A stretch of 62,353 nt of DNA, filler included, from Asterionella formosa (Eukaryota), in the NCBI GenBank assembly GCA_002256025.1. It is 21 parts of 21 records of this genome, joined end to end, with 100 filler letters (N's around TTAATTAATTAA, not from the genome) between each part and the next. Parts side by side here need not be neighbours in the genome. Positions count along the whole stretch, not along the records: positions 14,915 to 17,796 come from NKIB01014706.1; 20 more parts are not named here. One strand, written 5' to 3'. The notes below the pieces were generated by a model. The model did no database searches and had not been told where the DNA came from. It saw nothing but the letters and a program-made list of their open reading frames with translations. A program made the position numbers and the translations under genes. Positions 2,985 to 47,183 of this stretch are shown here, piece by piece (within the stretch, counting starts at the first letter, position 1; each line of letters begins with the position of its first letter).

Positions 2985-5867
2985 TAGGAAAGAAGAATCC
3001 CGGTATAAATTACCTACTACATATTGAATCGAGTGAATCAAAAAGAATATGGTACCAGAGAAAATTCAGAATTCGAAAACAATCTACGCCAACAGTAAAA
3101 CCCATAATTCTACTAAAACTCTTAGGAACGATTACAATCGATTATGGCAACATCGTTGTTCATATCTACAGCCTATTTGGTCCCTGACATGTCCTTACAG
3201 GATACAAGAAAGCATAGAGTGCTTCGGGACGCAATTTCAACAGTTTTAATAGAATTAGCCGGCCAGGAAGAGCCGTGATACCACAATCAACAACAGGTGG
3301 ACTGTTGAGAGTCCGGAGACAAGATCTGAGGGTACCAGACCATCCAGAGTCTGAAGAAGTCGCACAAGGCGCATCATGAGTGGCAAAGGAAAGTTTACAA
3401 AGAAGGCTCAGGCCAAGTGCAAGTATCAAGCCAAGGGAGGGAGCACAAATGCTTCTCACTCCATCAAGAAGTCAGTTAATGACTATAACTACTACCTCGG
3501 ATCATTGAAGTAGGCATCTGATTATGAGACTACTGCTGAGTACCTCATCAATCACATCAAGAAAGTGTTCGACTATGGCAACGACATAGGAACTGCGCTC
3601 AAGTTGTTAGAACCAATCAACACATCGGCATGGAAACCAAGAATGCAAGTGAGCATTGCAACAACAGAAGAAGATCGCGCTGCAGAGAATCGACAATATG
3701 AGATTGAGTTCAAGGCTGACTATGACACCTACAGTAAAAGGGTACAGGCCTACGAAAATAAGTATACCAAGGCATATGCATTGCTCTGGGAAAGATGCAA
3801 CAAAGCCATGAAGAACAAGATCAAAGCGAGATCTGATTACAATAGGATCGAAAATAACCCAATAACATTGCTTATGGCAATTAAAGAACATGCATTAAAT
3901 TTTCAAGAAAATCAATATTCTATGTCAATCATTTTAGATGTGATGAGAACGTTTTTATTTATAAAGCAAAAGGAAGGAGAAAGTCTACAAGACTACACCA
4001 AAAGATTTCGTGTGGCACGAGATGTGCTCAAGTCACACATGGGAGGACCCATTTTCCTCACCAAGTTCGTTGAAGCCATGGATGGATACAACAAGACTGA
4101 CATCAAGCTATGAGATAAATTTCGCGAACAAGCTTTCAGTCAGTTTATGGCCTATTTATACCTTGATAATGCGGAAAAAGCCAAATATGGATCAATTATG
4201 ACCGGGCTGAACACTCAACAATCACTTGGCAACAATCAATACCCGAAGACCATCACCGAATCAAATAATGTTCTCAGCAACCGTCGGTTTGACATAATAA
4301 ATAAACCCAACAGTCGCAAGAAACCAGGAGATCATAATAAAGACAGAGAACAGAAGGATGCAGGGAAGGAAGACGAAGATGTGAACTTATTGTTTGTACA
4401 GTTGGAAGGAAAATGTTACTGCTGCGGAAAAGCAGGTCACAAATCTCCTTTGTGCAGTGACAAGAACAAACCCAAAGAGGAATGGGCTATCAACAAGGCC
4501 CAAAGCCATGCACATGCACAGGCTTCTACATCAGAGACAAGTACGGTTACCTCTGTTAATTCCAACAACCCACCATCATTACAAGCTTCACAGCAAGCAA
4601 ATGTCAATCAATTTGGATGGGCAGGAGCTCATATGAAACTACAATTTTACCAAGCATCTGAGATGCGTGACTGGATACTATTGGATAATCAATCAAGTGT
4701 CACAGTCTTTTGCAACCCGAAAATGGTTGAAAACATTCGAATGTCAACCAATGGAAGCATGCACCTGGCCACAAATGGTGGATCCATGGTCACTGATATG
4801 AAGGCTGATCTTCCACAATGGGGAGAAGTATGGTTTAATGAAAGGGTAATCACAAACATCTTCAGTTATGCCGAAATGGCAGATAGGTACAGAATTACCT
4901 ATGACTCTGAGAAAGAAGATGCATTCATTGTTCATTTGCCTGACAAACCAGTTCGATTTGAAAGAATTGGGATGAACTTATATGTTTTCAAGCCTCCTAC
5001 AGCAATTAAGGCGGAGAATGCTCAAATGTTTAATACACTTGAAGAAAACAAAACATTTTACACTGAACGTCAATTTCAGAGAGCTAAGCGAGCTTGTGAT
5101 CTATTTCATGCCTTGGGTAAACCATCAATTAATGATTTCAAGGCAATAATTTGTATGAATACGATCAACAATAATCCAGTGACTAACAATGATATCAAAA
5201 TTGCAGAGAAAATTTTTGGACCTGACATTGGAACACTAAAAGGCAAGACAACTTGTTGCAAGCCGCTGCCAGTTGTGGACGACTACATCGAGATTCCTAA
5301 GGAGCATATCCAAGCTCAACGCGAAATGATTCTTTGCATGGATGGAATGAAAGTGAATGGACAATCATTTCTCACAACAATTTCTCGAAACATTATGTAT
5401 AGGACAGCGCAATGGGTCAAGAATCAGACAGCTGAAGTCTATCGAGATGCTTTGATTCAAGTATTCCGTGTTTATAATACCGGAGGATTTAAAATTACAA
5501 CAATCCACTGTGACAACGAGTTTCGACCTTTGATGGAACAAATTTCCAATGAATTTCAAGTCACTATGAACTACGCAAACCCACAAGAACATGTTCCCGA
5601 AGCGGAGCGAAATAATCGAGTGATTAAAGAACGCGTGCGCGCAGCTTATCATCGATTACCTTTCAAACATTTGCCGCGACTGATGATTAAGATTCTAGTC
5701 ACAGAATCTGCAAGGAAACTGAATTTCTTTCCGGCAAAGAATGGGATATCCCCGTATTACAGTCCTCGTATGATTTTACATCAACGAAACCTGGACTATG
5801 CTCGACATTGCCAGTATACATTTGGCACTTATGTCCAAGCACATGAAGAACCTGTGTTTTCAAACAC
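2985..5867 (+). mobile_element. Ty1/copia (CoDi-like) LTR retrotransposon internal fragment, copy A
   Basis: Leader, then gag (zinc knuckle CYCCGKAGHKSPLC), protease (WILLDNQSSVTVF) and integrase core (LCMDGM, IHCDNEF, EHVPEAERNNRVIKER). PBS-like TGGTACCAGAG at 3050-3060. Confidence 0.92.
3376..5867 (+). pseudogene. gag-pol, 3'-truncated, with two in-frame stops
   Basis: A single frame runs from ATG 3376, interrupted by TAG 3511-3513 (CAG in copy B) and TGA 4111-4113. ORFs 3565-4113 and 4147- are in the same frame. Confidence 0.88.
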
Positions 5868-8800
5868 NNNNNNNNNNNNNNNNNNNNNNNNNNNNNNNNN
5901 NNNNNNNNNNNTTAATTAATTAANNNNNNNNNNNNNNNNNNNNNNNNNNNNNNNNNNNNNNNNNNNNGGTCGAGGCAGGTGATGTACAGCGTTTTGTCGA
6001 GCAACTTCACTATCTGCTTGACTCAACTTAAAGAAATAAAAATGTAGTCACTATCATTGACTTATTTGATCAATAATATATTCTACTCCATACTAAAGTC
6101 CCATTTTCCAGCAGGCCCCTGGTAGTGTTCTATTGGCTAAGGGGCGCATGAATTTTGCAATTGTGAAGTGACACCCGTCCCCCTCCTATTTGCCTGTGTT
6201 ATCTTTAACATAGCATGATGATCTTGATGCAACCATACACATATAACTTGTATAGAGGAATACAATTTCAAAACCATCTCCGTCACTTTCAATAAATGTA
6301 ACAACAACAGTATGAAATAGTAGCTCAGAGTAGTACAAACAAATTGAATAAGTATGCATACCAGATGCACTTGCACCATGAACCAGTTCTGCCGAAAAAA
6401 GGAACATGCAGAACATGCATAATTTTCACAAACTCCAACTCTGACACTAGACCAGAAAATATTCAGAATCTAGTGGTAAATGGAAAAATTTTGGCTCCTT
6501 GACTTTTTATCAACAAGTTCAGTAAAAACTTCTCAAGACAAATGAACAATATATATTTCCCAAAGTTGTGAACAAGAGACATGCTAAACATTTGTATTGT
6601 CAGTGACTCCAACACTGATGCTGAAACGGAAAGTAAACATCAGGTGCCAAAACAAAAAACATATCATGAAGTCAATTTGAATTATATTCATAAAATAAAT
6701 TCTCTCTTGATGACCAATTCCAAATCACGATCAAACTTTATCACAACTTGGTTTCAGGCAGGAAGATATTCCGGAAATGGAATTCTCCTTCAAATTTTCG
6801 TATACCATATATAATGCAGTGTCTTGGACCCCGCAATGTACACTGCCTGCTGTGACTGAATCTGACTGAGTTTACTTAGTCCAGGAATATGGTAAGAATT
6901 CCCTTATACTAGACTTTAGTGAATTTTTAAGTTCTACAGGATGGCGCGCTTTTTTCTAATAAATATAAAAATGTTGATCGTCATTTCCGCAAAGTGAAAA
7001 TTGAGAAAGATCTTCACCTTGCAAAAAATTCGCAACTTCACAGTGCTATTGGCGACTTCAATTTTTGTTGTCAATATAGGAAGTGTTATTACATAAAAGT
7101 TAGTAATGATTCATAGCCCATTCATACTCCCCTATTTCTATAGGCAAGTATTCATTGTGCTACTCACCACCAAGACCTGTGCTTCCCTAGTTTTGTTAGC
7201 ATAGGTGAGTCTCCAACCACGTTTTGCGAAAGGTGATCCTGGTCATAGCCGAAGCATTAGGGGATCATATTATCGAGTTCTTTCAGGCTAATTAGGCTGA
7301 TTTCAGTCTCTCGTTGAGGCTCAATATGAAAACCTTTATGTCACTTTCCTTTAAATTTATATAAATTGTTGGATAATACTTTTCTCCAGAATAAAAGGGC
7401 TAGCACTACTGTATAATTCAATGTCATGATCCCCCTCCTGAGGTTGCTGGACCCCCCTGTATATTTTGCTCGAGGTGGCACCAAACACCCAGTAATTTTC
7501 TAGACATAATAGGCAAAGAATCAAGCAATAATTGCGCTATCCTTTCTCGTAGGCACTAGTACATAATTAATTAGCAGAGATATGCGATTCTGCAGTCCCA
7601 GGACAATAAAGACAACCACACTTGATAAGCTCTTGTGCAATGTTGCAGAAGGTTTGTAGTGTCTGTGCGCATTGATTAACATGAAATATATAATAACAAT
7701 GATGATTATTTAATAATGGTTGCGAAATTAGTCATATCTCTTCCTCACATGCAGATGTGAGAATGAGGATGATCGATACCCTATCACCTATCAATTGACA
7801 CTGAGAGCACAGGTAAAATATATGCTCATTTGCTGCTCATATGTCTATTGGAGCGCGAAGTTATATGATTGTTTCGCTTCTTGTATGTTTATAGAAGACA
7901 GCTTGTGAACGATTTTTTCGCCTCAAGTTTGTGTATAGGAAAGTGCCTGATTTCAAAACTTGCGTCATTGTTTTGCTGCACCGTGAGTGAAAAGAAGATC
8001 GCTTGTGATCATAAGTTATGTGATCGTTTTGTTGCACGTGTGTTGAGATTTTACTCATTGAAACACTTTTGCTAACATTGTTTTTATATTCTACAGGAAA
8101 ATGATTTAGGAACCGTCTGTAAATAAAAAGTATCATGCATATAGGATCAACGGTATCGTACGCTAAGTGGCACAGGATTTTCTTATATATGATAATTTTT
8201 GGATCAAAAATATGATCAAGGTATCTTGTATCTATGATGATTTATTAATATGTTACCGACTTTGAAGTATAATGATAATAGGAGCATTATCATCACACAA
8301 TGTATATGAACTGATCAACCTTCTCATATTATTTTCACTTCTCGTGATCACCCGATGTAAATCATTACTACAACGCATCCTAAAATCAGCTCAACTCTAT
8401 GCTATCATGTGAATTGTTTCATCGTAAACATGATCATAATTCTAATCACAAGCATTGTTCAAAATAGATTGAAATGGATCGTAATTTAACTATCAAATTA
8501 AGCAATGCTATCTATGATTCTACAGGCCAGCAACCCAATGTTTCTCTCTCTACTTGGCTCAATGTATATTGATCCTGTCTCGCCCTTTCCTTCCTCTATT
8601 CTGAATCTTGCGCCATGCAGTGCTTAATGTCTCGCATTTGTCCCTGCAATTAGTGACACTCTGAACTCACCGACTATTCCGTTGTTTGATTGGTTTTATT
8701 GTCCTATGCATGCAGTTACAGTTACAATGAGAAGGAATGGTTTGTTAGCTAGTCATGTTACATTGACACAAGAACACGCAATTCCATCGTATCCTCTTGC

Positions 8801-8950: not shown

Positions 8951-11832
8951 TAGGAAAGAAGAATCCCGGTATAAATTACCTACTACATATTGAATCGAGT
9001 GAATCAAAAAGAATATGGTACCAGAGAAAATTCAGAATTCGAAAACAATCTACGCCAACAGTAAAACCCATAATTCTTCCAAAACCTCTAGGAACGATTA
9101 CAATCGATTACGGCAACATCGTTGTTCATATCTACAGCCTATTTGGTCCCTGACATGTCCTTACAGGATACAAGAAAGCATAGAGTGCTTCGTGACGCAA
9201 TTTCAACAGTTTTAGTTGAATAAGCCGGCCAGAGAGAGCCATACATCACAATCAACAACAGGTGGACTGTTGAGAGTCCGGAGACAAGATCTGAGGGTAC
9301 CAGACCATCCAGAGTCTGAAGAAGTCGCACAAGGCGCATCATGAGTGGCAAAGGAAAGTTTACCAAGAAGGCTCAGGCCAAGGGCAAGTTTCAAGCCAAG
9401 GGAGGGAGCACAAATGCTTCTCACTCCATCAAGAAGTCAGTTAATGACTATAACTACTACCTCGGATCATTGAAGCAGGCATCTGATTATGAGACTACTG
9501 CTGAGTACCTCATCAATCACATCAAGAAAGTGTTCGACTATGGCAACGACATAGGAACTGCGCTCAAGTTGTTAGAACCAATCAAGACATCGGCATGGAA
9601 ACCAAGAATGCAAGTGAGCATTGCAACAACAGAAGAAGATCGCGCTGCAGAGAATCAACAATATGAGATTGAGTTCAAGGCTGACTATGACACCTACAGT
9701 AAAAGGGTACAGGCCTACGAAAATAAGTATACCAAGGCATATGCATTGCTCTGGGAAAGATGCAACAAAGCCATGAAGAACAAGATCAAAGCGAGATCTG
9801 ATTACAATAGGATCGAAAATAACCCAATAACATTGCTTATGGCAATTAAAGAACATGCATTAAATTTTCAAGAAAATCAATATTCTATGTCAATCATTTT
9901 AGATGTGATGAGAACGTTTTTATTTATAAAGCAAAAGGAAGGAGAAAGTCTACAAGACTACACCAAAAGATTTCGTGTGGCACGAGATGTGCTCAAGTCA
10001 CAGATGGGAGGACCCATTATCCTCACCAAGTTCGTTGAAGCCATGGATGGATACAACAAGACTGACATCAAGCTATGAGATAAATTTCGCGAACAAGCTT
10101 TCAGTCAATTTATGGCCTATTTATACCTTGATAATGCGGATAAAGCCAAATATGGATCAATTATGACCGGGCTGAACACTCAACAATCACTTGGCAACGA
10201 TCAATACCCGAAGACCATCACCGAATCAAATAATGTTCTCAGCAACCGTCGGTTTGACATAATAAATAAACCCAACAGTCACAAGAAACCAGGAGATCAT
10301 AATAAAGACAGAGAACAAAAGGATGCAGGGAAGGAAGACGAAGATGTGAACTTATTGTTTGTACAGTTGGAAGGAAAATGTTACTGCTGCGGAAAAGCAG
10401 ACCACAAATCTCCTTTGTGCAGTGACAAGAATAAACCCAAAGAGGAATGGGCTATCAACAAGGCCCAAAGCCATGCACATGCACAGGCTTCTACATCAGA
10501 GACAAGTACGGTTATATCTGTTAATTCCAACAACCCACCATCATTACAAGCTTCACAGCAAGCAAATGTCAATCAATTTGGATGGGCAGGAGCTCATATG
10601 AAACTACAATTTTACCAAGCATCTGAGATGCGTGACTGGATACTATTGGATAATCAATCAAGTGTCACAGTCTTTTGCAACCCGAAAATGGTTGAAAACA
10701 TTCGAATGTCAACCAATGGAAGCATGCACCTGGCCACAAATGGTGGATCCATGGTCACTGATATGAAGGCTGATCTTCCACAATGGGGAGAATTATGGTT
10801 TAATGAAAGGGTAATCACAAACATCTTCAGTTATGCCGAAATGGCAGATAGGTACAGAATTACCTATGACTCTGAGAAAGAAGATGCATTCATTGTTCAT
10901 TTGCCTGACAAACCAGTTCGATTTGAAAGAATTGGGATGAACTTATATGTTTTCAAGCCTCCTACAGCAATAAAGGCGGAGAATGCTCAAATGTTTAATA
11001 CACTTGAAGAAAACAAAACATTTTACACTGAACGTCAATTTCAGAGAGCTAAGCGAGCTTGTGATCTATTTCATGCCTTGGGTAAACCATCAATTAATGA
11101 TTTCAAGGCAATAATTTGTATGAATACGATCAACAATAATCCAGTGACTAACAATGATATCAAAATTGCAGAGAAAATTTTTGGACCTGACATTGGAACA
11201 CTAAAAGGCAAGACAACTTGTTGCAAGCTGCTGCCAGTTGTGGACGACTACATCGAGATTCCTAAGGAGCATATCCAAGCTCAACGCGAAATGATTCTTT
11301 GCATGGATGGAATGAAAGTGAATGGACAATCATTTCTCACAACAATTTCTCGAAACATTATGTATAGGACAGCGCAATGGGTCAAGAATCAGACAGCTGA
11401 AGTCTATCGAGATGCTTTGATTCAAGTATTCCGTGTTTATAATACCGGAGGATTTAAAATTACAACAATCCACTGTGACAACGAGTTTCGACCTTTGATG
11501 GAACAAATTTCCAATGAATTTCAAGTCACTATGAACTACGCAAACCCACAAGAACATGTTCCCGAAGCGGAGCGAAATAATCGAGTGATTAAAGAACGCG
11601 TGCGCGCAGCTTATCATCGATTACCTTTCAAACATTTGCCGCGACTGATGATTAAGATTCTAGTCACAGAATCTGCAAGGAAACTGAATTTCTTTCCGGC
11701 AAAGAATGGGATATCCCCGTATTACAGTCCTCGTATGATTTTACATCAACGAAACCTGGACTATGCTCGACATTGCCAGTATACATTTGGCACTTATGTC
11801 CAAGCACATGAAGAACCTGTGTTTTCAAACAC
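8951..11832 (+). mobile_element. Ty1/copia (CoDi-like) LTR retrotransposon internal fragment, copy B
   Basis: Near-identical to 2985-5867, with the same first and last bases. Confidence 0.92.
9341..11832 (+). pseudogene. gag-pol, 3'-truncated, with one in-frame TGA
   Basis: ATG 9341, TGA 10076-10078, then the same frame continues through the zinc knuckle (CYCCGKADHKSPLC), protease and integrase. Confidence 0.88.
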
Positions 11833-11932
11833 NNNNNNNNNNNNNNNNNNNNNNNNNNNNNNNNNNNNNNNNNNNNTTAATTAATTAANNNNNNNNNNNN
11901 NNNNNNNNNNNNNNNNNNNNNNNNNNNNNNNN

Positions 11933-13655
11933 CGGCCTGTACAGTCGACACTTTTGAAACTGCTTTTGCTTTCGCCTTTGCCTTAGAGCATCCGTCACAT
12001 GACCGGAGGGTACCAGAAAGTTCTATCTTCAGTGCTTTGAAGGTAGCACGTAGTGCGGCTTCCCCAATGTGCCCGTAGATATCGTGTGCCTGGTTGATAT
12101 CCTGTGACTTCATTTTGTCCTCCCCACTCATAACTGTATGGGTGTTTGTAGACAAGTTTTTGGTACTATCGGCCCCCTGGGACAATGGGGCAATAATCAT
12201 GGATACGACATCGGCACAACTCGCGCAACTTTCTTTAAAATAATAGAGAACTCCATTGGTCTCTCTGTTAAATGAAATATGTCCTCCACGACCTTTCTTA
12301 ACTGTCATTGTAGACCCTGTGACTGAAAGGTCAAAAACGTCACGGATTAGGACGCCCAAACTGACGACGTTCTTGTGAAACTTAGGCGTGTACAGGACAT
12401 CCTTCAATGTCAAAGTCTTCTCTCCGTTGGTGAGCTTGATGTCACCGCGTTTTGTGCATTTGATTTCCGAGCCATCGCCGACGACAACTGTGACACTGAC
12501 TGGGCGTACATTTGTCATACCGACGTCACTCATTGTGATATGGGCGGTAGCTCCAGTATCAGCGACCCAATTCTCCTGTAGGGCAATAGAGCGAGGAGCA
12601 ACAGCAGAGTCACAAAACTCTTTATTATTAAATTTTACATCACAATCATCAATAATTTCCTCGCAAATACCGACAAAAGTCCACTCTTTATCGTCGTTCT
12701 CGTTGTACTTGTCATTCATATCTTGTTTCTTTTCGTTTGCTTCGATGTCTTCGTAGTCAATCGTACACATGCCAACAAACATGCCGGTCTCTTTCGTTGT
12801 AGTACGTTCTCGTTTGGGTTCAGGGCAATCTTTTGCGATATGTCCGACAGGCTTGTTGCAATTGAAACACTTGACGCCTTTCGGAGGAGGCCTGTTTCTG
12901 TCGCCGTGTGTCTTGTTCTTGACTCGAAAATCGGCTGCCTTGTGTCCTTGCTTGCCGCAAGAGCGGCAGAGTCCTTTGAACTTAGTTCCAAAGGCAGCAA
13001 GAGCAAGTTCGCCATCCGACTTTTCGTTCTTAAACTTGCGTTTGAAGAACGCACGTATCTTGGCCTTAAGGTCTTCTAGTGTTAGGGAGGGCATAGCCTC
13101 AACCATTGTTACCACTTCTGATTACTCCTTAGGTAGTTTATCACGTATGTGGGCAATCATCTCGAGATCCTTCTTTTCGTAAGCAGAATCAATCGTCGCC
13201 ATTCGATTCCTCAACAACTCGAGTTGGATGAACCACTCGTCTGGGTCTTGCGTCTTCCCCTCACAGATGCACTTGTTGAACTGTCCTGACAGTTGGATTA
13301 AGTCGCTTGTAGCATTAGGAACATAGCGAGCCTTGAGGTAGGTCCAAGCAAGGAATGCATCGCCGTCTTGATGATTCTTTGTCTTGGCTTGGTTAACCAA
13401 ACCAAACGCAATCCCAGTGCAACTCATAATCAGAAGCTGGTATGCGCGGTCGTTCATCTCGTAGATTTTCTTGACATCGTCTTTGTCTGTAGTTTCGTAG
13501 ACAGCATCGCTTCATGGATTGGTATCCTTCATGTAGGCATTCTTGAATCCTCTTGTCTTGGCTGGTGCAAGTGTCTTCACACTCCACTCATGCCAATTGG
13601 CGTCCTCGCCATCAAACTTCACAAGGCGAATGGTCTCACCTTTGTCTTCAGTCAT
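11933..13655 (-). pseudogene. Ty1/copia gag-protease-preintegrase, second family, with two in-frame stops
   Basis: A single frame from ATG 13655 (MTEDKGETIRLVKFDGEDANWHEW) has stops at 13512-13514 and 13122-13124. It contains UBN2-like gag, zinc knuckles (CRSCGKQGH, CFNCNKPVGHIAKDC), protease WVADTGATAH and the GAG-pre-integrase HDIYGH...CDGC motif. Confidence 0.9.
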
Positions 13656-13687
13656 GTTGCAAAACGAAGTTGATCCGCTTGCAAGCA

Positions 13688-13935
13688 TGTTAAATTCTTC
13701 TGCAGTCTGGCTGCAATGCTAGCTCTTTCTAGACAAGCTCTGTGTAATAAAACCTTCTGTTCTAATCCAACCTTATTGTGAGCTTATTTGATCTATCTTG
13801 TAATCATTCACATGACCAATTATTAAGGTTCTCTTCCCAAATTTGTATATAGATATTCATTGTGTTGTCAGACATTCAAGTCTCAACTGACAACTCAACT
13901 CCACTCACTTAGTAGAACAATCATGAATAATGACA
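13688..13935 (-). mobile_element. 5' LTR (about 248 bp) of the 11933-13655 copia element
   Basis: The minus strand reads TGTCA...TAACA (TG..CA termini) and ends 32 nt before the gag ATG. A second copy lies at 24913-25157. Confidence 0.8.
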
Positions 13936-14814
13936 TCATCATCCAATATTAGTGTGCGTGCTGCGGATGATTGCTGACGTGTGCCTGCACGAGTAGGAGT
14001 AGGTGAGGTCACAAAGCCTGTAGATAGCCTATTCATTTCTCGATCGAGCTTTGTAGATTTCGTAGCATTATTCGTACGAGGCTCGTTCGTATTCATACCA
14101 CCTGCGACGGAATCTGCAAAGCTCACTCCCTTGGGAGTACTGGGATCGTCTTGTTTCGTTGGTAGTAGTGTAGTAGCCCCTTGCTCGTCAGGAGGCATTG
14201 CGTTGGTAGGTTTAGTAGGAGTGTCGAATTCCTCGTCTATACCGGATCCGTCTGTGGTGAATTCGTCCATGTCCGCTGTGGGTTTGGCATTTCCATGCCA
14301 GTCGGCCCATTTAAGGTCTCTTGTGTTGAAGACCTTTTTCGTTGTAACGTTGTACATGCGGTAGGTATCACCGGCGTGGTCATGGCTGTATCCAAGCATG
14401 ACACATTTGACACTTTTTGGGGTTAGTTTCTGCCTTGGCGTCCGAATCGTAGCCCACCCCACCCTGCCAAACTGAATCAGGTGAGGATAAATCTTAGGCT
14501 GAAAGCCGTAGAAAAGCCAATCGGGGCATTTTCCCGTATTCGAGTTAGCGACAGAGTTCGTTAGTCGCATGTGCATGTGGACACTCTTGGTCCACAGTAG
14601 CCCCTAGTATTCGTCTGACAATTTTGCGCTGAACATGGAGGCACATGCTCGGTCTTGTATTGTCACAAAATTTCGTTCCACGACTCAGTTCTGTTGAGGA
14701 GTATGGGGGGCAGTATACTCAATCTGAATACCCTGCGTGGTGCAGACGATACTTAGACTGGTCATGTTTTCACCGGCATTTTCCAGCGTAGGAAGCGTAC
14801 TACATAGCCCGCTG
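13936..14814 (-). pseudogene. Ty1/copia integrase core, SH3-like domain and linker, interrupted by the LTR
   Basis: NAGEN...IEYTAPHTPQQN*VVERNF and KCVMLGYSHDHAGDTYRMYN are present with stops. The frame runs directly into the LTR at 13935. Confidence 0.85.
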
Positions 14815-15163
14815 NNNNNNNNNNNNNNNNNNNNNNNNNNNNNNNNNNNNNNNNNNNNTTAATTAATTAANNNNNNNNNNNNNNNNNNNNNNNNNNNNNN
14901 NNNNNNNNNNNNNNGGCGACAAGTTCCGGGTCATGAGCCAAAAAATTGCCACATTGCAATTTTCAATAGTACTCAAATTTTGTGGGTTCTTACCAGCTTC
15001 GATTTTCTACCCCTTTTTCTATTGCGATTGGTGCCACAGTAGCACCCAGCGAGGGTCATTTTTTCTTTACCTTTGATGTGCGTCTGAAAAGGTGACTTTT
15101 GTTTCCATCTCATTCACTTTTCGACTCATGCTTGGTCATGAACGATGACACAAGTTTGCAAAC

Positions 15164-16080
15164 ATGACTGTAGACACAGCAGCAGCTACCGACGAACAAG
15201 CGGGCTTGGCCCGAAAGCGCCGCATGCATCGTTTACATCGCGATGTCAAGAGGCAATGCGCAGAGGAGGAGGAGTACGCCGAGGTCCCTGAGGCAGTTTC
15301 ATCCGACCCCAAGCCTCATCCGACCGGGATCAAGCTGCAAGCTCGCTACGATCCTGGCGTGCCCATGACCCGAGATGAACTTACCTCCTGGAGAAAGGAA
15401 GCTCGTCGTGTTCGCAATCGCGAGTCTGCTGCTGAGTCTCGCAAACGAACGCGCGACCGTATTGAGGAACTCGAAAGTGAAGTTTCTGCTTTGAACACGA
15501 AGTATCAGGCTGCTCTAGCCCGCATCATGGAGTTGGAATCACGCGGGGACAGCAGCACTCCTCTCTTTGTACCTCGCAATATTTCACAAGAAAAAACTCT
15601 CGTACGGGGAAAGGATTCGCGCAGTGTTTTTGTTTCCCCCTGTCCGTCGGAGGTTTCATCTCCTTGCCTCTCTCCTGTCTCCAACCGTTTGCCTTCTCGT
15701 TTCTCTCTCTCTGACAGGAACAGCCATCAAGAACTAGTGGACCAAAAGTATCAAAACATCATGACTATGATCTCTCGACCAGCCGAGTCTATTTGATCAC
15801 CCTTAAAGGAACTCATGTTCCTCCTATGTTTTACCTTCCAGCAGTGAAGTCAATCCATGATGATGATACTTTTGAGCCGCTAGCTCCTGATGCTAGTTCC
15901 TCGTTAACAGAGACAACGACGTTTGAGACTGCAAGTGATCTGTCATCCAACTCAGAAGACTTGGAGGAGACGGAACTTGGAGATTTTCTAATGGATGCGT
16001 TCTCTTCCTACGAAGATCAATTTCCGCTTGTCGTTGATGCTGACCTGGACGCATTCCTTGGTGACATGGTTGGGGTTTGA
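15164..16080 (+). CDS. bZIP transcription factor, putative HAC1/XBP1/bZIP60 equivalent. Unspliced form 210 aa (15164-15796); predicted IRE1-spliced form 285 aa (15164-15782 + 15842-16080)
   Basis: Basic region RKEARRVRNRESAAESRKRTR, then leucine heptads (IEELESEVSALNTKYQAALARIMELE). A downstream acidic reading frame is reachable by excising 15783-15841. The bZIP call is strong; the UPR assignment is inferred. Confidence 0.85.
15757..15862 (+). promoter_or_regulatory. Twin stem-loop RNA element with IRE1 consensus loops (unconventional intron 15783-15841)
   Basis: Hairpin 1 is GAC-CAGCCGA-GTC (15777-15789) and hairpin 2 is CTTC-CAGCAGT-GAAG (15835-15849). A flanking stem is formed by CATCATG 15757-15763 / CATGATG 15856-15862. 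Confidence 0.72.
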
Positions 16081-17081
16081 TGACATTGTTCGATGACCCA
16101 TGAATTCTACATTGCAACTACATTTTACACGTGTCGTAGAAACGATGAACCAACTTATGCGGCATCATTTGTACGAAGTGATAACCGGACAAGCCGAATA
16201 TCTTGGAAATAAATGCACCAACACTAGATCAGCAGCGTTAACAATTAATTCTTACAGTTGCATGTTTATTCTTGAATGTCACAGGTACATGCTGAATATA
16301 GACAACAACCATAAAACAAAATTATGCTAATGATTACGACTTGAACGGTTACAACTACACCAACGAGAACGTGTAGATGCCAGAAAAGAACTCACCCTGG
16401 CCCTTGTGATAATGTTCCCAAGAAGCGATATTCTTTGAACCAAGTTGTTACAACTTATTTTCCATCACCGGTGAGCTAAAGCAATGCCACTCAAATGCAG
16501 TCATGACATGCAAGATTTGCAAACATTTCGTCGTATGCAGGATCGCGACATGCATCATAGTACATATGGAAGCGAGACGACAATGTGTAATACAGCTGAC
16601 TTTCCATGTTGATGAGTGTGCCCAAGCTATCTACTGATAACGCACCGTCAACAAACCAAAATAAGAGGCTAAATACATGCGGATCGTATTACAAGGAGGA
16701 TCCTTACAATTTTTGCCACGCAAACAAGTGGAACGTAGACAAGTAGTAAATGGCTGTCCAAAACAAACATAAACAAAAAAATATTGGATAAAAAATCCAT
16801 CCCCGACCGTGGATTCAGTTTCATGATAGTTTAATGAACAATGTGACCTGCCATCATCAAACATAAAAAACACGCGCAAGAGTGTGTCCATACGAGTAGT
16901 AGATAGGCAGTTTAATAAAGAGTGCAAATTGTGAAATCGAATTACTTTTCGCCCACTGCATTAGAAAAATGAACTCTCACGTTATAATGCATCCCAGAAG
17001 AGATTCAAAACGAAAGCTTGGTTGATTCTTGCGTCTGAATGCAGAAACTCTAAATATCGTTCGTCTTGCCCCATCAAATCT

Positions 17082-17357
17082 CTAATCCGTCTTGGTACTA
17101 CTGCCAGTCGTCGCACTTTCGCTGCTCACGACACCCGAATTTCCTCCACCATTAGCTTCATTGTAAGCTGTCTCAAACATTTGAAGACTGAATAATAAAC
17201 CAGAACTCAGGAAGATCAAAATTGCCATGTGAATCCGAGCCACACCGGCAATAAAGATGCCAATCGTGCAAACCAACAAGAGACCAACAATGACACGGAC
17301 AAAAGGGATTAGCTTGATCCCGCCTCCGGGGGCCATGACTTCGGAAATAAAAGACAT
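17082..17357 (-). CDS. Small two-TM membrane protein, Pkr1-like (ER V-ATPase assembly factor family)
   Basis: 91 aa. MSFISEVMAPG, TM1, RIHM, TM2 (ILIFLSSGLLFSLQMF) and a polar tail parallel the Pkr1 pattern (S.F.PG...IHF...L..L.W.F). Confidence 0.6.
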   Translation of the reverse strand: MSFISEVMAPGGGIKLIPFVRVIVGLLLVCTIGIFIAGVARIHMAILIFLSSGLLFSLQMFETAYNEANGGGNSGVVSSESATTGSSTKTD

Positions 17358-17896
17358 CCTTGTACGATGTGTAGTTCCTTTTGCGTTAAATAGGATGGAT
17401 TGAATGGGACAATGACTTGGTCGTCAACAAGAATGTTGCTGAGAGGGAAATGGCGTCCTTGTTAATGAAAGCAAAAAGGGTACCAGGCATGATAGGTATG
17501 ATACCTGGTAACCTGGTACCTGGTACCAGGTACCTCCACACATATCCATGTTCATACAGGTCTACCGGCATGTATGTGTGCATTGTCTTCAATCTTCATC
17601 AGACCCTCATGTAATTAATAGTACCTGGTACCTGGTAGTATGTATTATCATGCACTCTATTAACAATGAGTTAGTATCATAGATGATGGATCATTCAGAA
17701 AATACCTTTGTACTTAGTTTTGTCTCTACCGGTACATCGTCAATACCAATGCTTTTCAAATGTAGTTACCGGTAGAATAATTATACATAAATGTATNNNN
17801 NNNNNNNNNNNNNNNNNNNNNNNNNNNNNNNNNNNNNNNNTTAATTAATTAANNNNNNNNNNNNNNNNNNNNNNNNNNNNNNNNNNNNNNNNNNNN

Positions 17897-30489: not shown

Positions 30490-31398
30490 CTACACTATAG
30501 GTTCTAGTTTCCCGAAAATGTTGTCTGGTGGCTGCTGGTATCCATGTTTTGGGTCAGGAAGCCAGCAGAAATCTAGATTGCGTAAGGCTTCCACCCGCTC
30601 CATGTTCAAGCCAGAAACCATGACGCCCTCAACCTCTTCTTCAATGGTTATACTTAGAACGTATTCTCTGCAGATTCGCTTTTGGTGTCGAACCCAGCGA
30701 CCCAACTGTGTATCTTCCTTCCATTTTTGGGGAACGCGGCAATGACCAAACCTCTCTTTGAATTTCCGTAGGGACTCATAACTTTCCCACCAGATTATCG
30801 AGCTAGGATACCATACAAATCCAGCTTCATCCAACATGTCGATCTGCTGTTTGGTCAAAGCTTTCCCCGCTTTCGTGTCCAGAGTCCCTACATTTGCTTT
30901 CTTGTACTTGTTTCGTAGATTAGAACACCATGACCCGAGCTGCTTGTTTTCAGCCCACCCAATTGGAACGTTACAATGCCCAAAGCGATCCTTAAAATCC
31001 AAGAGTTCCTGGTACTTCTGGTCCCATTTGGAAGTTCGAACTTTCCATACAAATCCGATCGAGTTCAATCGCTCGACTCTCTCCTTTGAAAGGAAAGACA
31101 GGTGTTTCTTTTCTGGAATTTCGAGATATTTATATTGGATCCGTTGGTTTCGAACCCAAATGCCCAAAAGTCGAGTTTCGGGATCGGCACTTGGGTTGCT
31201 GTGCCCATTTATTGCGATGAAATTTTTGATCTGCTCAAAACGGTCATTCCACCGTTCCTCTGTTGCACTTGTCTTGGCAATTGAGGCAGCAAGTTGTTGC
31301 ATGTGCTGTGCCCTTTCTTGACCAATAGAGAAAGCGCAGAACCCATATCCTCTAATAATGAGGCCAGCAAGGACAAACACAACAACTCTCCCCGACAT
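30490..31398 (-). CDS. Helicase-associated (HA) domain protein, three repeats, with N-terminal signal peptide
   Basis: Three W..(F/Y)..L..F...GH..VP...LG.W..QR...L...GF.W units and a hydrophobic N-terminus ending GYGFCAF. Confidence 0.85.
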   Translation of the reverse strand: MSGRVVVFVLAGLIIRGYGFCAFSIGQERAQHMQQLAASIAKTSATEERWNDRFEQIKNFIAINGHSNPSADPETRLLGIWVRNQRIQYKYLEIPEKKHLSFLSKERVERLNSIGFVWKVRTSKWDQKYQELLDFKDRFGHCNVPIGWAENKQLGSWCSNLRNKYKKANVGTLDTKAGKALTKQQIDMLDEAGFVWYPSSIIWWESYESLRKFKERFGHCRVPQKWKEDTQLGRWVRHQKRICREYVLSITIEEEVEGVMVSGLNMERVEALRNLDFCWLPDPKHGYQQPPDNIFGKLEPIV

Positions 31399-33354
31399 CA
31401 GTTGCTCTATACGACCAAAATGTTCTTGTTATGTCTAGAATATGATTCGGTGAGGATCAATACTTATATTTCGTTGCAGAATTGCTCGATTGTAAATAGG
31501 TAATGAGGAGCCATGTTGTGATGTGGCCAAAAATGTTCTGCCTTCTTAGTATACCGGTACCAGGTAGTAAGTTGTAGTAAGTAAGATACATATGGCTCAG
31601 CCATCGTATCATGCTGAAGGTAAGACACGACCGTGGGTTGAGACTGCCCGAGGCTTGGGAGGCGCGAGTAAGATATCGGTTGGTTGACCGAACGAGCGGC
31701 GCCCCTGGCGTTGCGAGAAGGTCTACCTGCTACCGGTAAGATAGGGCCTCCCAAGTCGACTGTTTGATCCCGTTCGTTTGACTAGTTCGACTAACACTTA
31801 GCTCGCCTCTCTCTGAAATTTGTTTGGAAGTATTGATGTCATTTGTAAGGCCGTTGCTAACCGTTGACCCAAACCAAAACTCGAAAACTTATTATTGGAT
31901 TGGTTTTGGTCAACTAACACAAAAACGATGCTTTCGGTTTTTGGGAAATCCTAAATGCTGTTGTTTCAACCACCCATCTACTGTGATGTAGGATGACAAA
32001 ACCATTATAAAAAAAGTAAAATATTTCTATTAGACTACTTTTATAAATGAAATATTATGATTCCTATTTGGGAATTAGTTAGTTTTTCCCGGAATTTGAG
32101 CGATGCTGCTGTCTTGTCATCCAACTGCACACCAGTACTAGTATGTATATATAATATAGAGTCATAAATATATACCACTCCAAGCAAGTACATAGTATTA
32201 CCAGGTACACAACAACAACAAGAACATAACAACATAGGTCGATTGCCACTCAGCATCCTCGATCATGGTGCCAGCACCCCTTCCAGCCAAGAGAGCTCTT
32301 TCTCCCTCTGCATGGCAAAAGGAGATGCAACGAACTGTTGCTGTTGCTGTTCTGGACAAGGTATCAGGAGGGCCAACAATGACAACCAAAAATCGTCAGA
32401 ATAAAGTATATCTACTTCATCATGGCGATCCATCCGTGAAAGGAAGCATTGGATATTTGGAGTCTCTGCTGAGGGGAAGGGGTCAATTCGAAGACCTTTG
32501 GAGTACTAAAGAGGAGCTGAATACCAACCTCCCAGGAAGAAATGCAGATCGCGTTTCTGGCTGCCTTTGATTTGGTCTTAAAAGATTGCTATTCCCGTGA
32601 TTATCAAAACAGATATGTTGTTGGCTCCCAATTCACTACAAGATCTCTTGCAGGCACTGGAATGAAAAATATTTCCACTTTAATTACTGGTCGAACTCTT
32701 TTGAAGATGNNNNNNNNNNNNNNNNNNNNNNNNNNNNNNNNNNNNNNNNNNNNTTAATTAATTAANNNNNNNNNNNNNNNNNNNNNNNNNNNNNNNNNNN
32801 NNNNNNNNNCTTTGGCACGATATTAGTTAGTTCATTAAGGTACATGAGAATTAGATCATTTCTTTACTTGAACATACCGGTATATTAACTGAGATCTATC
32901 CATTTTAAAAGTGACAAAAACGGTCAAAAAAATTTTTATAGGCGACGGTTAGAAAATATTACATCGTTTGCATTTTTTTCGAAGTTGTTGCATCGCTCGT
33001 TTTTAGACTGATGGTTGTGAAGATCTCGATGTGAAAAGATGAAGAGGCTACCGGTAAGCGGAGCTATGGAAAAGATAAAAGAGATGAAAATGATAAATAT
33101 GAAAATTATAAGTACTTATAAAAGCACCAAGTGTTACGCATACAAAGCAAGAGAAAGTATTGTTCTCTTGTGACTTATTTCTGATTTCGTGTGACGTTGA
33201 CAGGACTGACGTGTTCATATTTAAGTATATATATATATATGAAGTTGCCATATATATGGCGAGAATTGCATAGTCCCCCAAGGAGAGAAATGATAAATTA
33301 ACCAGCACCTTGAATATGAAAAGTAAATTAGCGCCATAACATGCGATGGCATAA

Positions 33355-35360
33355 TTAGAGATGTTTGTGAGGAGGAAGCCATTTGGTGAATACATCAGCC
33401 AAATTAGTAGAACCAGGTTCATGGTGAACTCGTAATGTGCCGGAGACCACAGATTCACGTACTTTGTGGTAAGCGATAGAGTTAAGTTTCTTTAGTAGGG
33501 TTGATTCGGGTTTGGTAACATTAATAACACCCAACATACGTAGTTTATAGCGCATTGCATCATTCATTTCAGTTGCGATTTTCAATGCCACAAATTCAGA
33601 GCCAAAAGTGGATGCTTCAATCGTGTTTTGTCGTTTGGAGTACCATTTGATAGGTATACCGTTAAGGAATAAGATAATACCTGTTGTTATGAGGTCAGTG
33701 GCATGAGAAGCATCACAAAACATGTTGAGTTGTACAGGTAAACCTTGTGGTTTAGGAGCGTTGTAGGGAATTTGTTCATGGACGTTGGGGTAAAAAGCCT
33801 TTCAAGATTCGGAAGTCCATGTAAGATGACTCCAATCACGTTCTCGGTAGTCAACAACAATATGGCATTTAATATATTTCTTGATGTAGGCAAAAGTTCG
33901 TAGGATCGCAACCATGTGACCTTTTCGAGGAGCCGCCATGAATTTTGCTAATGTTGCCCCTCCTGTATGTGCTAAATCGATCCTGCCTAACTCAATTGCC
34001 CATCGAATTATTCCATTATAACTCTGATATAGTCTGGTATCTTCGTCATTTAAGAATTCGCTATTGCCCAGTTCAGGATGATAATCAGGGGATGCTGGTG
34101 CATCATGTTTAGACTTGAACATTACCTTCAATGGGCCATATGTTTCTTCAATGATGGATATTGCGTTGGTCAAGTATTCGTTGGCAGAGATGAACCATGT
34201 CTCAGTTCCATCATCTAATTGTTGTCTTCCAATGTTTGCACCAAGATATCGGCTAGGGGACCCAACATCCTTTAGCCGATATTGGAAAGGCGGTTCCGAA
34301 AATGCATTTATGGTTTTCATAGGGTCCTCTGAAATACATAGGTTGTCATCAACATAGACAAGTACGTATTCATAGTAAGCAAGACCTTTGTAGCTTGTTC
34401 CTTCATGGTACCACATATCAGGGTCAGCATAGCTTGAGGTGAAGTTAAGGTCATGCAAAGTTGCTGCAAAGTGTGCTCTCCAAGCTGCACCTGAGCTCTG
34501 AAGCCCATATAGTGCTCTCACCACGATGGCAATCTTTCCTGCGTATATTCGTGAGTCCAGAATGGGATTGTTGTGTTTTCTTCCAATATACAGCCTGTCC
34601 GAGTTTCGTTTTCGTCCCAAAACCCTCGCTATCTCATTTCGATCTCCATGGGGAAGGTAAATCTGTGCATTAATGAATTCGTCTGGGACCGATATGACCT
34701 CTGCATTCTGTATTTTTTCATCATGTGCTTCTTCATCATCCATATCATTTGAGTACAGAGGGTCCATCATAACGTCAAGGGGAGCATTGTGAACAAGAGT
34801 TTCATCAAATGCTGAGTATAGTTCGGTGATAGCGTGGTCAAATGCTCTTCTCATGTCTGTTTCAATAGGGTCAAGGAGCTCGTCTTTGGTTAGTGTTCTA
34901 ATAGTGTATCGGGCAATTACCTTGCCATTCTGCTTAAGGATATATTAGAACATCGCATGTCCTGTGTTTTGTGCCACTCCTAACCAATGCCCCAGATCAT
35001 TTTCTGTGCCGCCGCCTTTCACATCATGGCATTTAACCCATCCATAGAAATCAAAGTTGATGTACTCAGATATGTCAGGGGTCTCTCCTGTCATGGATTC
35101 AAGGGGAGTTCGATTTTCAACCATTGGGCGGGAAATCCTTTCTCTAATTTGAAATGTATATTCCATTCCATAATCCCAGAAGCGCTCAGGACAGCGGGAT
35201 CGGTGCATAATACGACGGAAATGTCGCTTCAATTCTTGAATTTCCCGTTCTGCACGATTTTGTCACAGAGAATGTGGTTCTGTTGTCCTTTGTTGGAATA
35301 AGTATTTTTTCCTGACATGGTCCCATTCACCCCTAGTTTCTTCAACTGCGTTGTCTAAGG
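33355..35360 (-). pseudogene. Degenerate Ty1/copia pol (integrase, RT, RNase H) with an internal deletion
   Basis: DNAVEE..TEPHS*QNRAEREI, RALYGL, YVLVYVDD, FCDASHA, EASTFGSEFVA and NLADVFTK are present, with stops and frameshifts. The sequence jumps from ILDSRIY directly to AGKIAIVVRALYGL. Confidence 0.88.
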
Positions 35361-45321: not shown

Positions 45322-45650
45322 GGTACTCTGAGTACGGGTAAGACTGTACGTATTATGTTGTTGATTCTCTGTTGAAAACATAACTCTCCCGGTGCTATGC
45401 ATGGTACCTAGTACCTGGTACCAGGTAATAGGAAGAGATTCGAGCGAGGGCCGCAGCAAGAAACCCCAAATGTTTCTGAAGCGGTTCAAGAATGCAACGC
45501 CATGATACTCTTAATTCTCAAGAACTCCAATGCAGCCTCTGACTTTGTCTCTTGGATCCTATTAAGCTCAGGAGAATACTTATCGCGAGAGAGCGAATGC
45601 ATGCAATGAATGAATCAGCAACAAGTGACATCAAACAGCTGAAATCGGAA

Positions 45651-47183
45651 ATGAACACATTCGCCTTTTCTGCGCTGTATGCCACACTGCTTCTCGTTCG
45701 CTTCATTTGCGTGGTCCTTCCTGGGTATATTCACCCCGATGAATTCTTTCAAGGCGGCCAGGAGCTATTTTTTGGGACAGTCCAAACCTGGGAATGGAAG
45801 GAAGCCGCAGCAGCTAGGAGCATTTTACCTCCGCTGTTCATGACTTGGCTCCCAATTCAAGGTGCCCGGCTTCTTTTCTGGGGGCCATCCGTCAGAATTT
45901 CGTGGCTCGCACCCAGAATATGGATGACTTGTCTGTCGTTGGTAGTTGATGCTGTGTGTTGGAATCTGGGCAACCGAAAATCTGTACTATTGTTGGCGTC
46001 GGCCTGGCCAACGCTACTATTTCTTACCCGACCGTGGAGCAATTCGTTAGAAACATTGGAATTGGCACTACTGTTTTGGATTGTGACTGTACAGCAAAAA
46101 GGTTTGCGAAAAAATTTATGCTTGGGCGGCCTTGCTGCAATCGGGCTTTGGACGAGATTTTCGTTCCCCTTATTTGCCTTTCCTGTTTACCTGAAACATT
46201 TATGTACGGCAGCATCGGTCCCCAAGACATTCCTGGGTCTTGCAACTGGCTTTCTGTTAATGGCTGGCATTTTTATATACTCAGATATACTATTCTATCA
46301 TGGTGCCTTTGCTTGGGGACATGTTCCCAACACCATTGCGCCTCTCAATTTATTTCTTTACAATTTCGATGTGACCAATTTGGCTCAACACGGATTGCAC
46401 TTTCAAGGCTTGCATGCCCTAGTAAATATGCCCATGCTCTTTGGGGTCATGGGGATTTGGTTTTATTGGGATTATGGGTTTGGAGAAACATCAATTCCCA
46501 ATAGCCTTGTCGGCATGTGTCGATGGACCATTGTTTCTGGCGTTGTTTTGTTGTCGTGCTCACCTCATCAAGAACCCAGATTCCTTCTGCCTTGCTTAGT
46601 GCCATTATGTATTTTAGCATCTCAAATACCTGTTTCAAAGTGGGTCATGTCGATTTGGATGGGATCCAACCTTTTGATTGGCGTTTTTTGGGGTGTCCTA
46701 CATCAAGGTCAAGTCACCAATTCGCTATTGGCACTCAACGACTTCACGGAAACCACACCACCATCAGTGGTATACTACTATTGGAGAACGTATATGCCAC
46801 CCACGTTTCTGGTGCAACCATGCAACACGGAGGAACAATGTACCAATCTTGACATTATTGATGCAAAAAGTAGTCATTCATCAGAATTTATCCCAACCAT
46901 GGACACATTATTGCAATGTGGGCACCACAAGGATAGAGCCATTCATGTGGTGACACCAACTTTGTATTCAAGTCACGGACTAGAATTCTCTCCCACAGCT
47001 TGTCATGTTCCTTCATATAATTGTACCCTAATTCGGTCCCATTGGCCGCATGTTTCAACAGAGGACTTGCCACCTTGGAGAGGTTCCTTATCCAGTATTC
47101 TGAATGATTTGCAATTGGGAGTCTACCTGGTAAGTTGCCTAGCTGCTCCCGTGCATACAGGACTGGATTCAGAAGGTGAATGA
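45651..47183 (+). CDS. PIGZ: GPI mannosyltransferase 4 (PIG-Z/Smp3, Alg9-like GT22 family)
   Basis: GYIHPDEFFQ, RSILP, RPWSNSLE, HQEPRFLLP and LHQG, with many TM segments. Start is uncertain (ATG 45597, 45606 or 45651). Confidence 0.88.
   Translation: MNTFAFSALYATLLLVRFICVVLPGYIHPDEFFQGGQELFFGTVQTWEWKEAAAARSILPPLFMTWLPIQGARLLFWGPSVRISWLAPRIWMTCLSLVVDAVCWNLGNRKSVLLLASAWPTLLFLTRPWSNSLETLELALLFWIVTVQQKGLRKNLCLGGLAAIGLWTRFSFPLFAFPVYLKHLCTAASVPKTFLGLATGFLLMAGIFIYSDILFYHGAFAWGHVPNTIAPLNLFLYNFDVTNLAQHGLHFQGLHALVNMPMLFGVMGIWFYWDYGFGETSIPNSLVGMCRWTIVSGVVLLSCSPHQEPRFLLPCLVPLCILASQIPVSKWVMSIWMGSNLLIGVFWGVLHQGQVTNSLLALNDFTETTPPSVVYYYWRTYMPPTFLVQPCNTEEQCTNLDIIDAKSSHSSEFIPTMDTLLQCGHHKDRAIHVVTPTLYSSHGLEFSPTACHVPSYNCTLIRSHWPHVSTEDLPPWRGSLSSILNDLQLGVYLVSCLAAPVHTGLDSEGE

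Follow-up and report, generated by a model that had tools for sequence, protein, structure and literature searches.

The question raised by the locus described here is whether a diatom bZIP mRNA is spliced outside the spliceosome, by cleavage within a pair of hairpins, and, if so, whether the cleaving enzyme is IRE1, the stress sensor of the endoplasmic reticulum (ER). The locus lies in a 62,353-nt stretch of Asterionella formosa DNA (assembly GCA_002256025.1), here called the window, along which all positions are counted. The window consists of 21 joined parts with 100 filler letters between them, adjoining parts need not be genome neighbours, and the part carrying the bZIP gene, 14,915-17,796, is record NKIB01014706.1. 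A first-pass annotation of the sequence had proposed that the 3' end of the bZIP coding sequence contains a 59-nt unconventional intron of the IRE1 type. The hairpins, stems and reading frames from which that proposal was built are confirmed to be real, as is the predicted 59-nt splice, and the interpretation placed on them is supported by the present analysis: the locus very likely undergoes IRE1-type cytoplasmic splicing which turns a tail-less bZIP protein into an activator.

The bZIP reading frame extends over 15149..15796 on the plus strand, has its ATG at 15164 and ends in ...ISRPAESI followed by a stop codon. The encoded protein is recognised by Pfam through both bZIP_1 (E 6.5e-9, residues 75-125) and bZIP_2 (E 4.6e-7). 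The +2 frame is open over 15715..16080 and reads AVKSIHDDD...GDMVGV up to its own stop. All hairpins, the extension of the 5' hairpin and the outer stem reported in the first-pass annotation are found in the sequence where it had placed them, and the arrangement of the gene is as follows (square brackets enclose a loop and a vertical bar marks the cut).

15164..15782 (+), 5' exon of the bZIP coding sequence, from the ATG to the G that forms the first base of the junction Ala codon (open reading frame (ORF), Pfam, RNA contigs)
about 15386-15538 (+), bZIP domain (Pfam bZIP_1)
15757..15763 (+), 5' arm of the outer stem, CATCATG, an exon-exon pairing with 15856-15862 in both the minimum free energy (MFE) and centroid folds; the same in relative L008
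15768..15799 (+), extended 5' splice-site stem-loop with arms TGATC (15768-72) and GATCA (15795-99) (sequence, folds)
15777-15789 (+), 5' hairpin GAC[CAG|CCGA]GTC, loop 15780-15786, cut after G15782 (sequence, folds)
15783..15841 (+), unconventional 59-nt intron, including the stop of the unspliced form (X6 RNA contig; no GT-AG or GC-AG register)
15794..15796 (+), TGA stop of the unspliced (U) form (ORF; 210-aa U-form proteins on record, P0125)
15807..15822 (+), intronic hairpin AGGAAC-TCAT-GTTCCT between the two splice-site hairpins (fold)
15835..15849 (+), 3' splice-site hairpin CTTC[CAG|CAGT]GAAG, loop 15839-15845, cut after G15841 (sequence; related loci)
15842..16080 (+), 3' exon; after completion of the junction Ala codon it encodes 78 aa of acidic tail containing motif ETELGDFLMDAF; stop at 16078-16080
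15856..15862 (+), 3' arm of the outer stem, CATGATG (sequence, fold)

Is the 59-nt segment removed from RNA? At least half of the sampled words of the gene were present in 18 RNA runs from 17 studies, mostly freshwater metatranscriptomes, and four RNA runs (X1, X2, X6 and X7) were compared with the locus, all as Logan contigs. A search for the junction without a GT-AG constraint had been named beforehand as a check on the proposal, and the junction is present in X6, where a 55-nt contig (depth 41.8) joins 15778 to 15838 with no mismatch. This is a skip of 59 nt with five ambiguous bases and corresponds to the predicted 15783-15841 intron in another register, the splice register being ambiguous by 5 nt in the window because CCAGC stands at both intron ends. 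An unspliced 114-nt contig accompanies it in the same run (depth 66.2). Spliced and unspliced depths total 108, compared with 113 for the downstream contig, and thus roughly 39% of the molecules are spliced in this sample.

Protein records agree with the junction. The predicted spliced product, ...ISRPA|VKSIHDDD...GDMVGV, is identical to a 285-aa protein on record (P0001), for which the allelic variants P0123, P0132 and P0134 also exist; the four are encoded on 15 contigs in total, all of 1670 nt or less. The 210-aa U form is found also on a contig of 37.6 kb. On unspliced contigs, gene callers divide the gene into a 210-aa bZIP protein (P0125) and an 84-aa orphan ORF (P0121), so that standard annotation misses the intron, as had been anticipated. 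A transcriptome of cultured Synedropsis sp. CCMP1620 also contains the two forms, assembled as P0144 and P0145 and identical up to ...IIRPTA. Spliced and unspliced mRNA therefore coexist, as indicated by the X6 contigs, the spliced (S) form proteins, the Synedropsis transcriptome and two spliced loci described below, L065 and L066.

The RNA runs also provided observations on the gene itself. X2 contains a single 1727-nt contig (depth 1407) covering 14940-16400, which extends well beyond the ends seen in X1, a polyA run (15157-16161), and may represent longer transcripts or DNA carry-over. A 3-nt insertion, GAG, at 15262 adds a Glu to an acidic run in the X2 and X6 contigs and in protein variant P0132, and several single-base differences separate the RNA runs at the bZIP gene; these are strain-level polymorphism of the same gene.

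Is the arrangement peculiar to this locus? A protein search with the 210-aa form returned 659 proteins at E ≤ 1e-3, and a profile built from eight spliced forms matched 760 representative clusters at E ≤ 1e-3 and 274 at E ≤ 1e-30. The named relatives are diatoms, namely Synedropsis sp. CCMP1620, Tryblionella compressa, Cyclophora tenuis and Cylindrotheca fusiformis (lineage checked for two), and orthologues can be recognised by the motifs ..MISRP.A and CTTCCNGCAGNGAAGAT. Most relatives end directly after the motif MISRP.A, and spliced relatives read on as ...RP.A|A/V-K-I... Spliced forms with a long acidic tail number six among the best 120 matches (P0001, P0015, P0040, P0047, P0105 and P0106), and of 134 further cluster representatives 13 were picked out by a regular-expression screen, about 12 being true spliced forms and one a false match.

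A scan of metagenome contigs yielded 80 loci, kept from the 274 confirmed relatives, and the system is present in every one of them, 78 being unspliced and two spliced (L065 and L066). The 78 unspliced loci share GATC.C.CGACC...G|C... as their 5' site and CTTC[CNG|CNGN]GAAG(AT), or a close variant of it, as their 3' site; the 3' stem covaries to CTTC/GGAG in L035, L037 and L038, and the 5' arm is one base shorter in L015. The ten loci whose contigs reach 3 kb or more are all unspliced, and L065 and L066 occupy contigs of 1298 and 1380 nt, the join in L066 being ...CGACCTATTG|CAGCGAAGATC... Clustering of the loci at ~90% identity gave 42 representatives, the window included, on which the family counts given below are based.

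Intron length varies in this family from 59 to 189 nt, and the first-pass annotation, which had attached importance to a length of 3n+2, is not upheld on this point. Among the representatives, lengths leaving a remainder of 0, 1 or 2 on division by 3 number 13, 14 and 15, respectively, an even spread which led us to reject the 3n+2 length rule for the family. Thus, of the layout and spacing expected in orthologues, the twin-hairpin layout is retained in all 80 loci while the 3n+2 spacing is not. What is constant is the position of the stop codon, as the unspliced frame stops within the intron in 42 of 42 representatives. The switch acts through excision of this stop codon, and intron length is therefore free of a frame rule.

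The two cut sites are conserved to different degrees. The 3' loop is CNG|CNGN in all 42 representatives, as CAG|CAGC (17), CAG|CAGT (15), CCG|CAGC (5), CCG|CAGT (3), CAG|CCGC (1) and CTG|CCGC (1). At the 5' site, G occupies position -1 in 42 and C position +1 in 41 of the 42, and the full CNG|CNG consensus is present in only 19, such that the loop conservation predicted for orthologues holds at the 3' site and only partly at the 5' site. The remaining donors are TTG|CTTG (7), CAG|CTTG (4), ATG|CTTG (3), ATG|CATG (2), TAG|CTTG (2) and five singletons. In many species nothing but G|C in an 8-nt loop is left of the donor consensus, and the acceptor is canonical. Non-canonical donors are spliced as well, since L066 carries TTG|CTTG and P0105, from Tryblionella, reads RPIA|AKIPPG; cut sites of this type have only G and C in common.

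These data bear on the proposition that the joined form is not a natural RNA but the result of reverse transcriptase template switching between the CCAGC repeats, or of a DNA deletion allele present in some strains. A 5-nt direct repeat does flank the intron in the window, the region is structured, and the evidence consists of assembled contigs from metagenomic libraries. We nevertheless regard such an artefact as extremely improbable. Template switching at a repeat is argued against by the IIRPIA-type cut sites, at which the same splice is found (L066, P0105) with only G and C in common. The joined form constitutes ~39% of X6 depth and both forms occur in one culture transcriptome. With respect to a deletion allele, the intron is kept in the window and in 10 of 10 loci on contigs of at least 3 kb, spliced forms being restricted to contigs of transcript size. 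Finally, the tail is conserved only in the spliced frame even though intron length varies freely modulo 3.

A spliceosomal intron with unusual ends, partly retained through ordinary alternative splicing, is the next candidate. Coexistence of retained and removed forms would be expected from it, and the 3' end resembles a pyrimidine tract followed by CAG. The ends themselves do not agree: 40 of the 42 representatives, including the window, have no GT-AG, GC-AG or AT-AC pair in any equivalent register, and the other two have AT..AG, consistent with the misfit of spliceosomal options claimed initially. A donor at the GT of 15787 would remove 55 nt and lead to a premature stop, compared with the 59 nt observed. 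In addition, conservation is centred on hairpin stems, loops and synonymous exon sites and not on a donor consensus. We consider a spliceosomal origin very unlikely. As individual candidates, the spliceosomal donors at 15787 and 15782 are ruled out by the observed junction and by protein P0001.

Do the hairpins differ from what chance would provide? Both strands of the 62-kb window and 200 dinucleotide shuffles were screened for hairpins in which 3 bp or more of stem close a CNGCNGN loop. The window contains 10, compared with 4.1 +/- 2.0 in the shuffles, and the only pair separated by 20-250 nt is that at 15780/15839, the shuffles having a mean of 0.01 such pairs. With RNAfold, the stretch 15750-15870 folds into the outer stem together with the extended 5' and the intronic hairpins. 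The representatives were folded over the interval between their two cuts plus 30 nt of exon on either side. Relative to dinucleotide shuffles the mean z is -1.82, with 39 of the 42 values negative and 18 of them below -2. Local folding places the 5' cut in an apical loop, capping an extended helix, for 40 of the 42, and many 5' sites are in 8-nt loops cut after the fifth base. A central intronic hairpin, built from unrelated sequences, is present in most of the 42 MFE drawings as judged by eye. When the IIRPIA subgroup (29 unique of 35 sequences) was analysed by RNAalifold, 19 pairs were obtained, three of them compensatory and all three located in this central hairpin.

The exons can also pair with one another. 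An element of the 5' exon, GAUCU(C)UCG, matches as complement the bases (C/U)GAAGAUC with which the 3' exon begins, 8 of 8 pairs being formed in 22 representatives and at least 7 in 33, compared with 5.2 in a shuffled control; both sides of the pairing are changed in L060 and L035. The window and L008 have the longer CAUCAUG/CAUGAUG stem in place of the GAUC-type exon pairing. The 5' exon GAUC can pair in addition with an intronic GAUC, which extends the 5' hairpin and excludes the pairing with the 3' exon. Because the two pairings are mutually exclusive they suggest a zipper, as the title of PMC4687415 suggests for XBP1, in which GAUC would be paired with the intronic GAUC before cleavage and with the 3' exon GAUC after it. 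In such a model, the zipper would eject the intron and align the ends for ligation.

A separate observation concerns introns of the IIRPIA type (L022, L039, L051 and others), in which an invariant GCAAGU can pair with the donor G|CUUGC and an XBP1-like CUGCAGC or UUGCAGC stands just upstream of the GCAAGU. In this lineage, whose donor is the most degenerate, the element could give rise to an alternative structure or serve as an additional cleavage site.

What does splicing change in the protein? The end of the ORF is exchanged, converting the 210-aa form to a 285-aa form with a conserved acidic tail and an LG.FL motif. After the join the frame A-(A/V)-K-I... remains open for a further 60-191 codons in the 37 representatives with a complete tail, and the other two post-join frames mostly close within a few codons. 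The 37 complete tails consist of 21.5% D+E and 3.1% K+R, and 34 of them contain the motif (E/D)x(E/D)-L-G-x-F-L-x-(D/E)-x-(F/L). The tail in the window, which had been predicted to be acidic, has 27% D+E and 1% K+R. From this composition, the acidic-hydrophobic tail with its LG.FL.D.F motif is a probable transactivation domain.

Selection is evident in the RNA as well as in the protein. The codons of the basic region served as an internal control for synonymous constraint near the cuts: the sequence WRKEARRVRNRESAA is identical in 41 of 42 representatives, with a codon entropy of 1.7-2.3 bits for Arg and 2.25 bits for Ser. Near the cuts, codons are nearly fixed, with Ile AUC in 28 of 28, Ser UCU in 22 of 28 and Arg CGA in 23 of 28, together with Lys AAG in 41 and Ile AUC in 36 of the 42 representatives. 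Synonymous sites are thus near-frozen beside the cuts, and the RNA sequence itself is therefore under selection there.

Which enzyme makes the cuts? Both loops of the window have the CNG|CNG (CxGxxG) form of the twin loops of IRE1-spliced bZIP mRNAs, cut after the first G, and the flanking stem which joins the exons in such mRNAs is present as 7 bp (15757-63/15856-62) in MFE and centroid folds. The name IRE1-spliced is taken from this loop motif, by which the cleaving enzyme is most probably the RNase of IRE1. That an RNA ligase takes part, that ER stress induces the splicing and that the tail acts as an activator are inferred.

A number of results weigh against this assignment and, in part, against the splice. 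The shorter side of the X6 spliced contig is only 25 nt, which is weak for metagenomes, and X1, X2 and X7 gave contigs of the unspliced form only, with no joined contig; the latter is no evidence against splicing, because contigs lose rare variants. In 23 of the 42 representatives the 5' loop does not conform to CNG|CNG. Pfam detected no IRE1-type domain in the 16 ORFs of 220 aa or longer that the window contains, and no paper documenting a diatom IRE1 was found, only an ERN1/IRE1 label in a figure legend within the available part of a kelp transcriptome study. The fold energy of the window region is only modestly better than that of shuffles (z -1.66, 12 of 200 as good), exon-exon duplex energies are no better than those of shuffles (mean z -0.56), and the 4-bp 3' stem exceeds a probability of 0.5 in only 13 of 42 long-context folds. 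In folds of L004, L020 and L023, among others, a conserved CUGGUGCUG (encoding ..TGAD..) lies downstream and is paired with the 3' site CAGCAG, a pairing which competes with the 4-bp 3' splice-site hairpin; the modelled pairing may mask the acceptor or belong to a conformational switch. The covariation predicted for the stems is seen in the CTTC/GGAG stem of three loci and in the three pairs of the central hairpin. RNAalifold on the IIRPIA subgroup recovered neither splice-site hairpin. It instead proposes exon-exon pairing and pairing of the 5' site with the intronic GCAAG, which are uninformative because all of these pairs are invariant. Rfam contains no family for 15600-16000 (E up to 10), giving two chance-level matches only.

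A further candidate is excision of the 59 nt at both loops by a nuclease other than IRE1, for example of another HEPN/KEN type or of the tRNA-splicing type, and perhaps without a link to ER stress. Such an enzyme would accommodate the lack of an IRE1-type domain in the 16 ORFs, the 23 of 42 5' sites without full CNG|CNG, many in 8-nt loops cut after the fifth base, and a spliced fraction of ~39% in one environmental sample with no known stress. However, the 3' loop is the textbook CNG|CNGN in 42 of 42 and the 5' loop of the window is canonical, Chlamydomonas CrbZIP1 provides an earlier case of a relaxed donor loop (in the available part of PMC11077094), and the substrate is a bZIP mRNA with a putative splicing-dependent activation tail, as in known IRE1 targets. 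Bulge-helix-bulge geometry is absent, the cuts being in apical loops 59-189 nt apart. We therefore consider a different nuclease unlikely. An intron of the tRNA-endonuclease type was rejected as a candidate in its own right, as the two 3-nt bulges and 4-bp helix are not found and the cuts lie in apical loops.

Returning to cleavage by IRE1, the switch would be the diatom counterpart of those of HAC1, XBP1 and bZIP60 and would operate as follows. By default the mRNA would be read as a 210-aa bZIP protein, with a stop four codons after the 5' splice site and no activation domain. The endonuclease would cut after G in the apical loops CAG|CCGA (15780-86) and CAG|CAGT (15839-45), the intronic hairpin and the exon-exon stem would hold both splice-site hairpins together, and an RNA ligase would join the exons. 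Loss of the 59 nt, and of the stop codon with it, would fuse the bZIP domain to the 78-aa acidic tail, and the 285-aa product would switch on ER chaperone and quality-control genes. The gene is probably the master regulator of the diatom unfolded protein response. Taken jointly, the results make it likely that this is an IRE1 substrate of diatoms, perhaps of ochrophyte stramenopiles more widely, and the first described in the SAR (stramenopile, alveolate and rhizarian) supergroup, characterised by a relaxed donor, stop excision and a possible GAUC zipper.

Other features of the window were noted. At 14816-14915, ~250 nt upstream of the bZIP ATG, two N runs surround a short palindromic linker, TTAATTAATTA; this looks like an assembly gap or masking insert, and the promoter region is therefore incomplete in the window. 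Fragments of copia-type retroelements (Pfam Pol_BBD, SH3_retrovirus and RVT_2) occupy 11880-14603 (-) and 33805-34944 (-), one of them directly upstream of the bZIP gene in the window. Two open frames of equal length (601 aa) at 4114-5919 and 10079-11884 (+) have no Pfam match and may be repeated-element copies or a duplicated gene. The window also encodes an Alg9-like ER mannosyltransferase (Glyco_transf_22, E 2e-39) at 45543-47180 (+) and two proteins with helicase-associated (HA) domain repeats at 30493-31428 (-) and 49440-50600 (-).

Has such a switch been described previously? In agreement with the first-pass annotation, which knew of no earlier description, none of an IRE1 target in diatoms, oomycetes or other stramenopiles was found in the full-text literature, subscription journals being largely outside coverage. 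A term search of the available text of a cross-eukaryote survey of IRE1-bZIP systems (PMC4891664) gave no mention of these groups. The IRE1-spliced mRNAs named in the available part of a 2026 review are limited to XBP1, HAC1 and plant bZIP60 (PMC13149111). Tunicamycin induces BiP, GRP94, PDI and calreticulin in Phaeodactylum, in a report whose accessible portion mentions neither IRE1 nor bZIP (PMC9585838). No paper naming a transcription factor of the diatom unfolded protein response was found in the literature covered. The locus would represent a known kind of switch in a lineage without an earlier report, unusual in its relaxed donor and in acting by stop excision, not frameshift.

Several consequences follow if the assignment is correct. 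The gene would be the first IRE1 substrate described in the SAR supergroup, extending the logic of IRE1-bZIP splicing to a fourth major eukaryotic lineage, and the twin-loop bZIP splicing switch would be as old as the last eukaryotic common ancestor. The relaxed donors would provide natural variants for studying the real substrate requirements of IRE1. Diatoms contribute a large share of ocean photosynthesis and are under development as protein-production hosts. The locus is a concrete, testable candidate, and would offer a reverse transcription PCR read-out of ER stress for cultures and metatranscriptomes. The gene models can also be corrected, as the 210-aa bZIP protein and the 84-aa orphan ORF belong to one gene.

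How does the diatom system compare with those already known? The intron of metazoan XBP1 is 26 nt long and acts by frameshift, whereas that of the diatoms is 59-189 nt, of any length modulo 3, and acts by removal of a stop codon. Differences are also found in the 5' loop, which is degenerate in more than half of the diatom family, and in the short U-form tail of the diatoms, which is without an evident hydrophobic or pausing region, although no search was aimed at one. The two are alike in that a bZIP mRNA carries two hairpins with 7-nt loops cut after the G of CNG|CAGN, the 3' loop having this XBP1 form (CAG|CAGC, CAG|CAGU, CCG|CAGC and similar) in 40 of 42 diatom representatives, and in that splicing exchanges the C-terminus for an activation domain, putative in the case of the diatom tail. 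In both, exon complementarity could hold the halves together (cf. the title of PMC4687415).

Plant bZIP60, OsbZIP50 and MpbZIP7 share with the diatom mRNAs the twin stem-loops, CxGxxG loops and a flanking stem, as given in the available part of PMC11077094. Intron length in plant bZIP60 is 23 nt, and splicing removes the transmembrane domain of the unspliced form, according to the accessible text of PMC12781897. The diatom U form, in contrast, simply ends 1-28 codons past the site. An RNRESA-type basic region is common to both, as is a switch which yields an active factor, the activity being presumed for the diatom protein.

Translation of yeast HAC1 is blocked by pairing between the intron and the 5' untranslated region, and the fungal and diatom sequence families are unrelated beyond the bZIP fold. 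Fungal HAC1/hacA nevertheless resembles the diatom system in its variable intron length, in an unspliced-frame stop carried by the intron and in the appending of a new tail by splicing. Fungal lengths extend from 19 nt (C. albicans) to 379 nt (C. glabrata), as reported in the available part of PMC6222058.

The closest parallel to the relaxed 5' site is found in Chlamydomonas CrbZIP1, an algal IRE1 target whose donor-side loop keeps only CxG, as described in the accessible portion of PMC11077094. CrbZIP1 belongs to the green lineage and not to the stramenopiles, and the diatom system differs from it in combining a fully canonical acceptor loop with a donor that is, in many species, only G|C.

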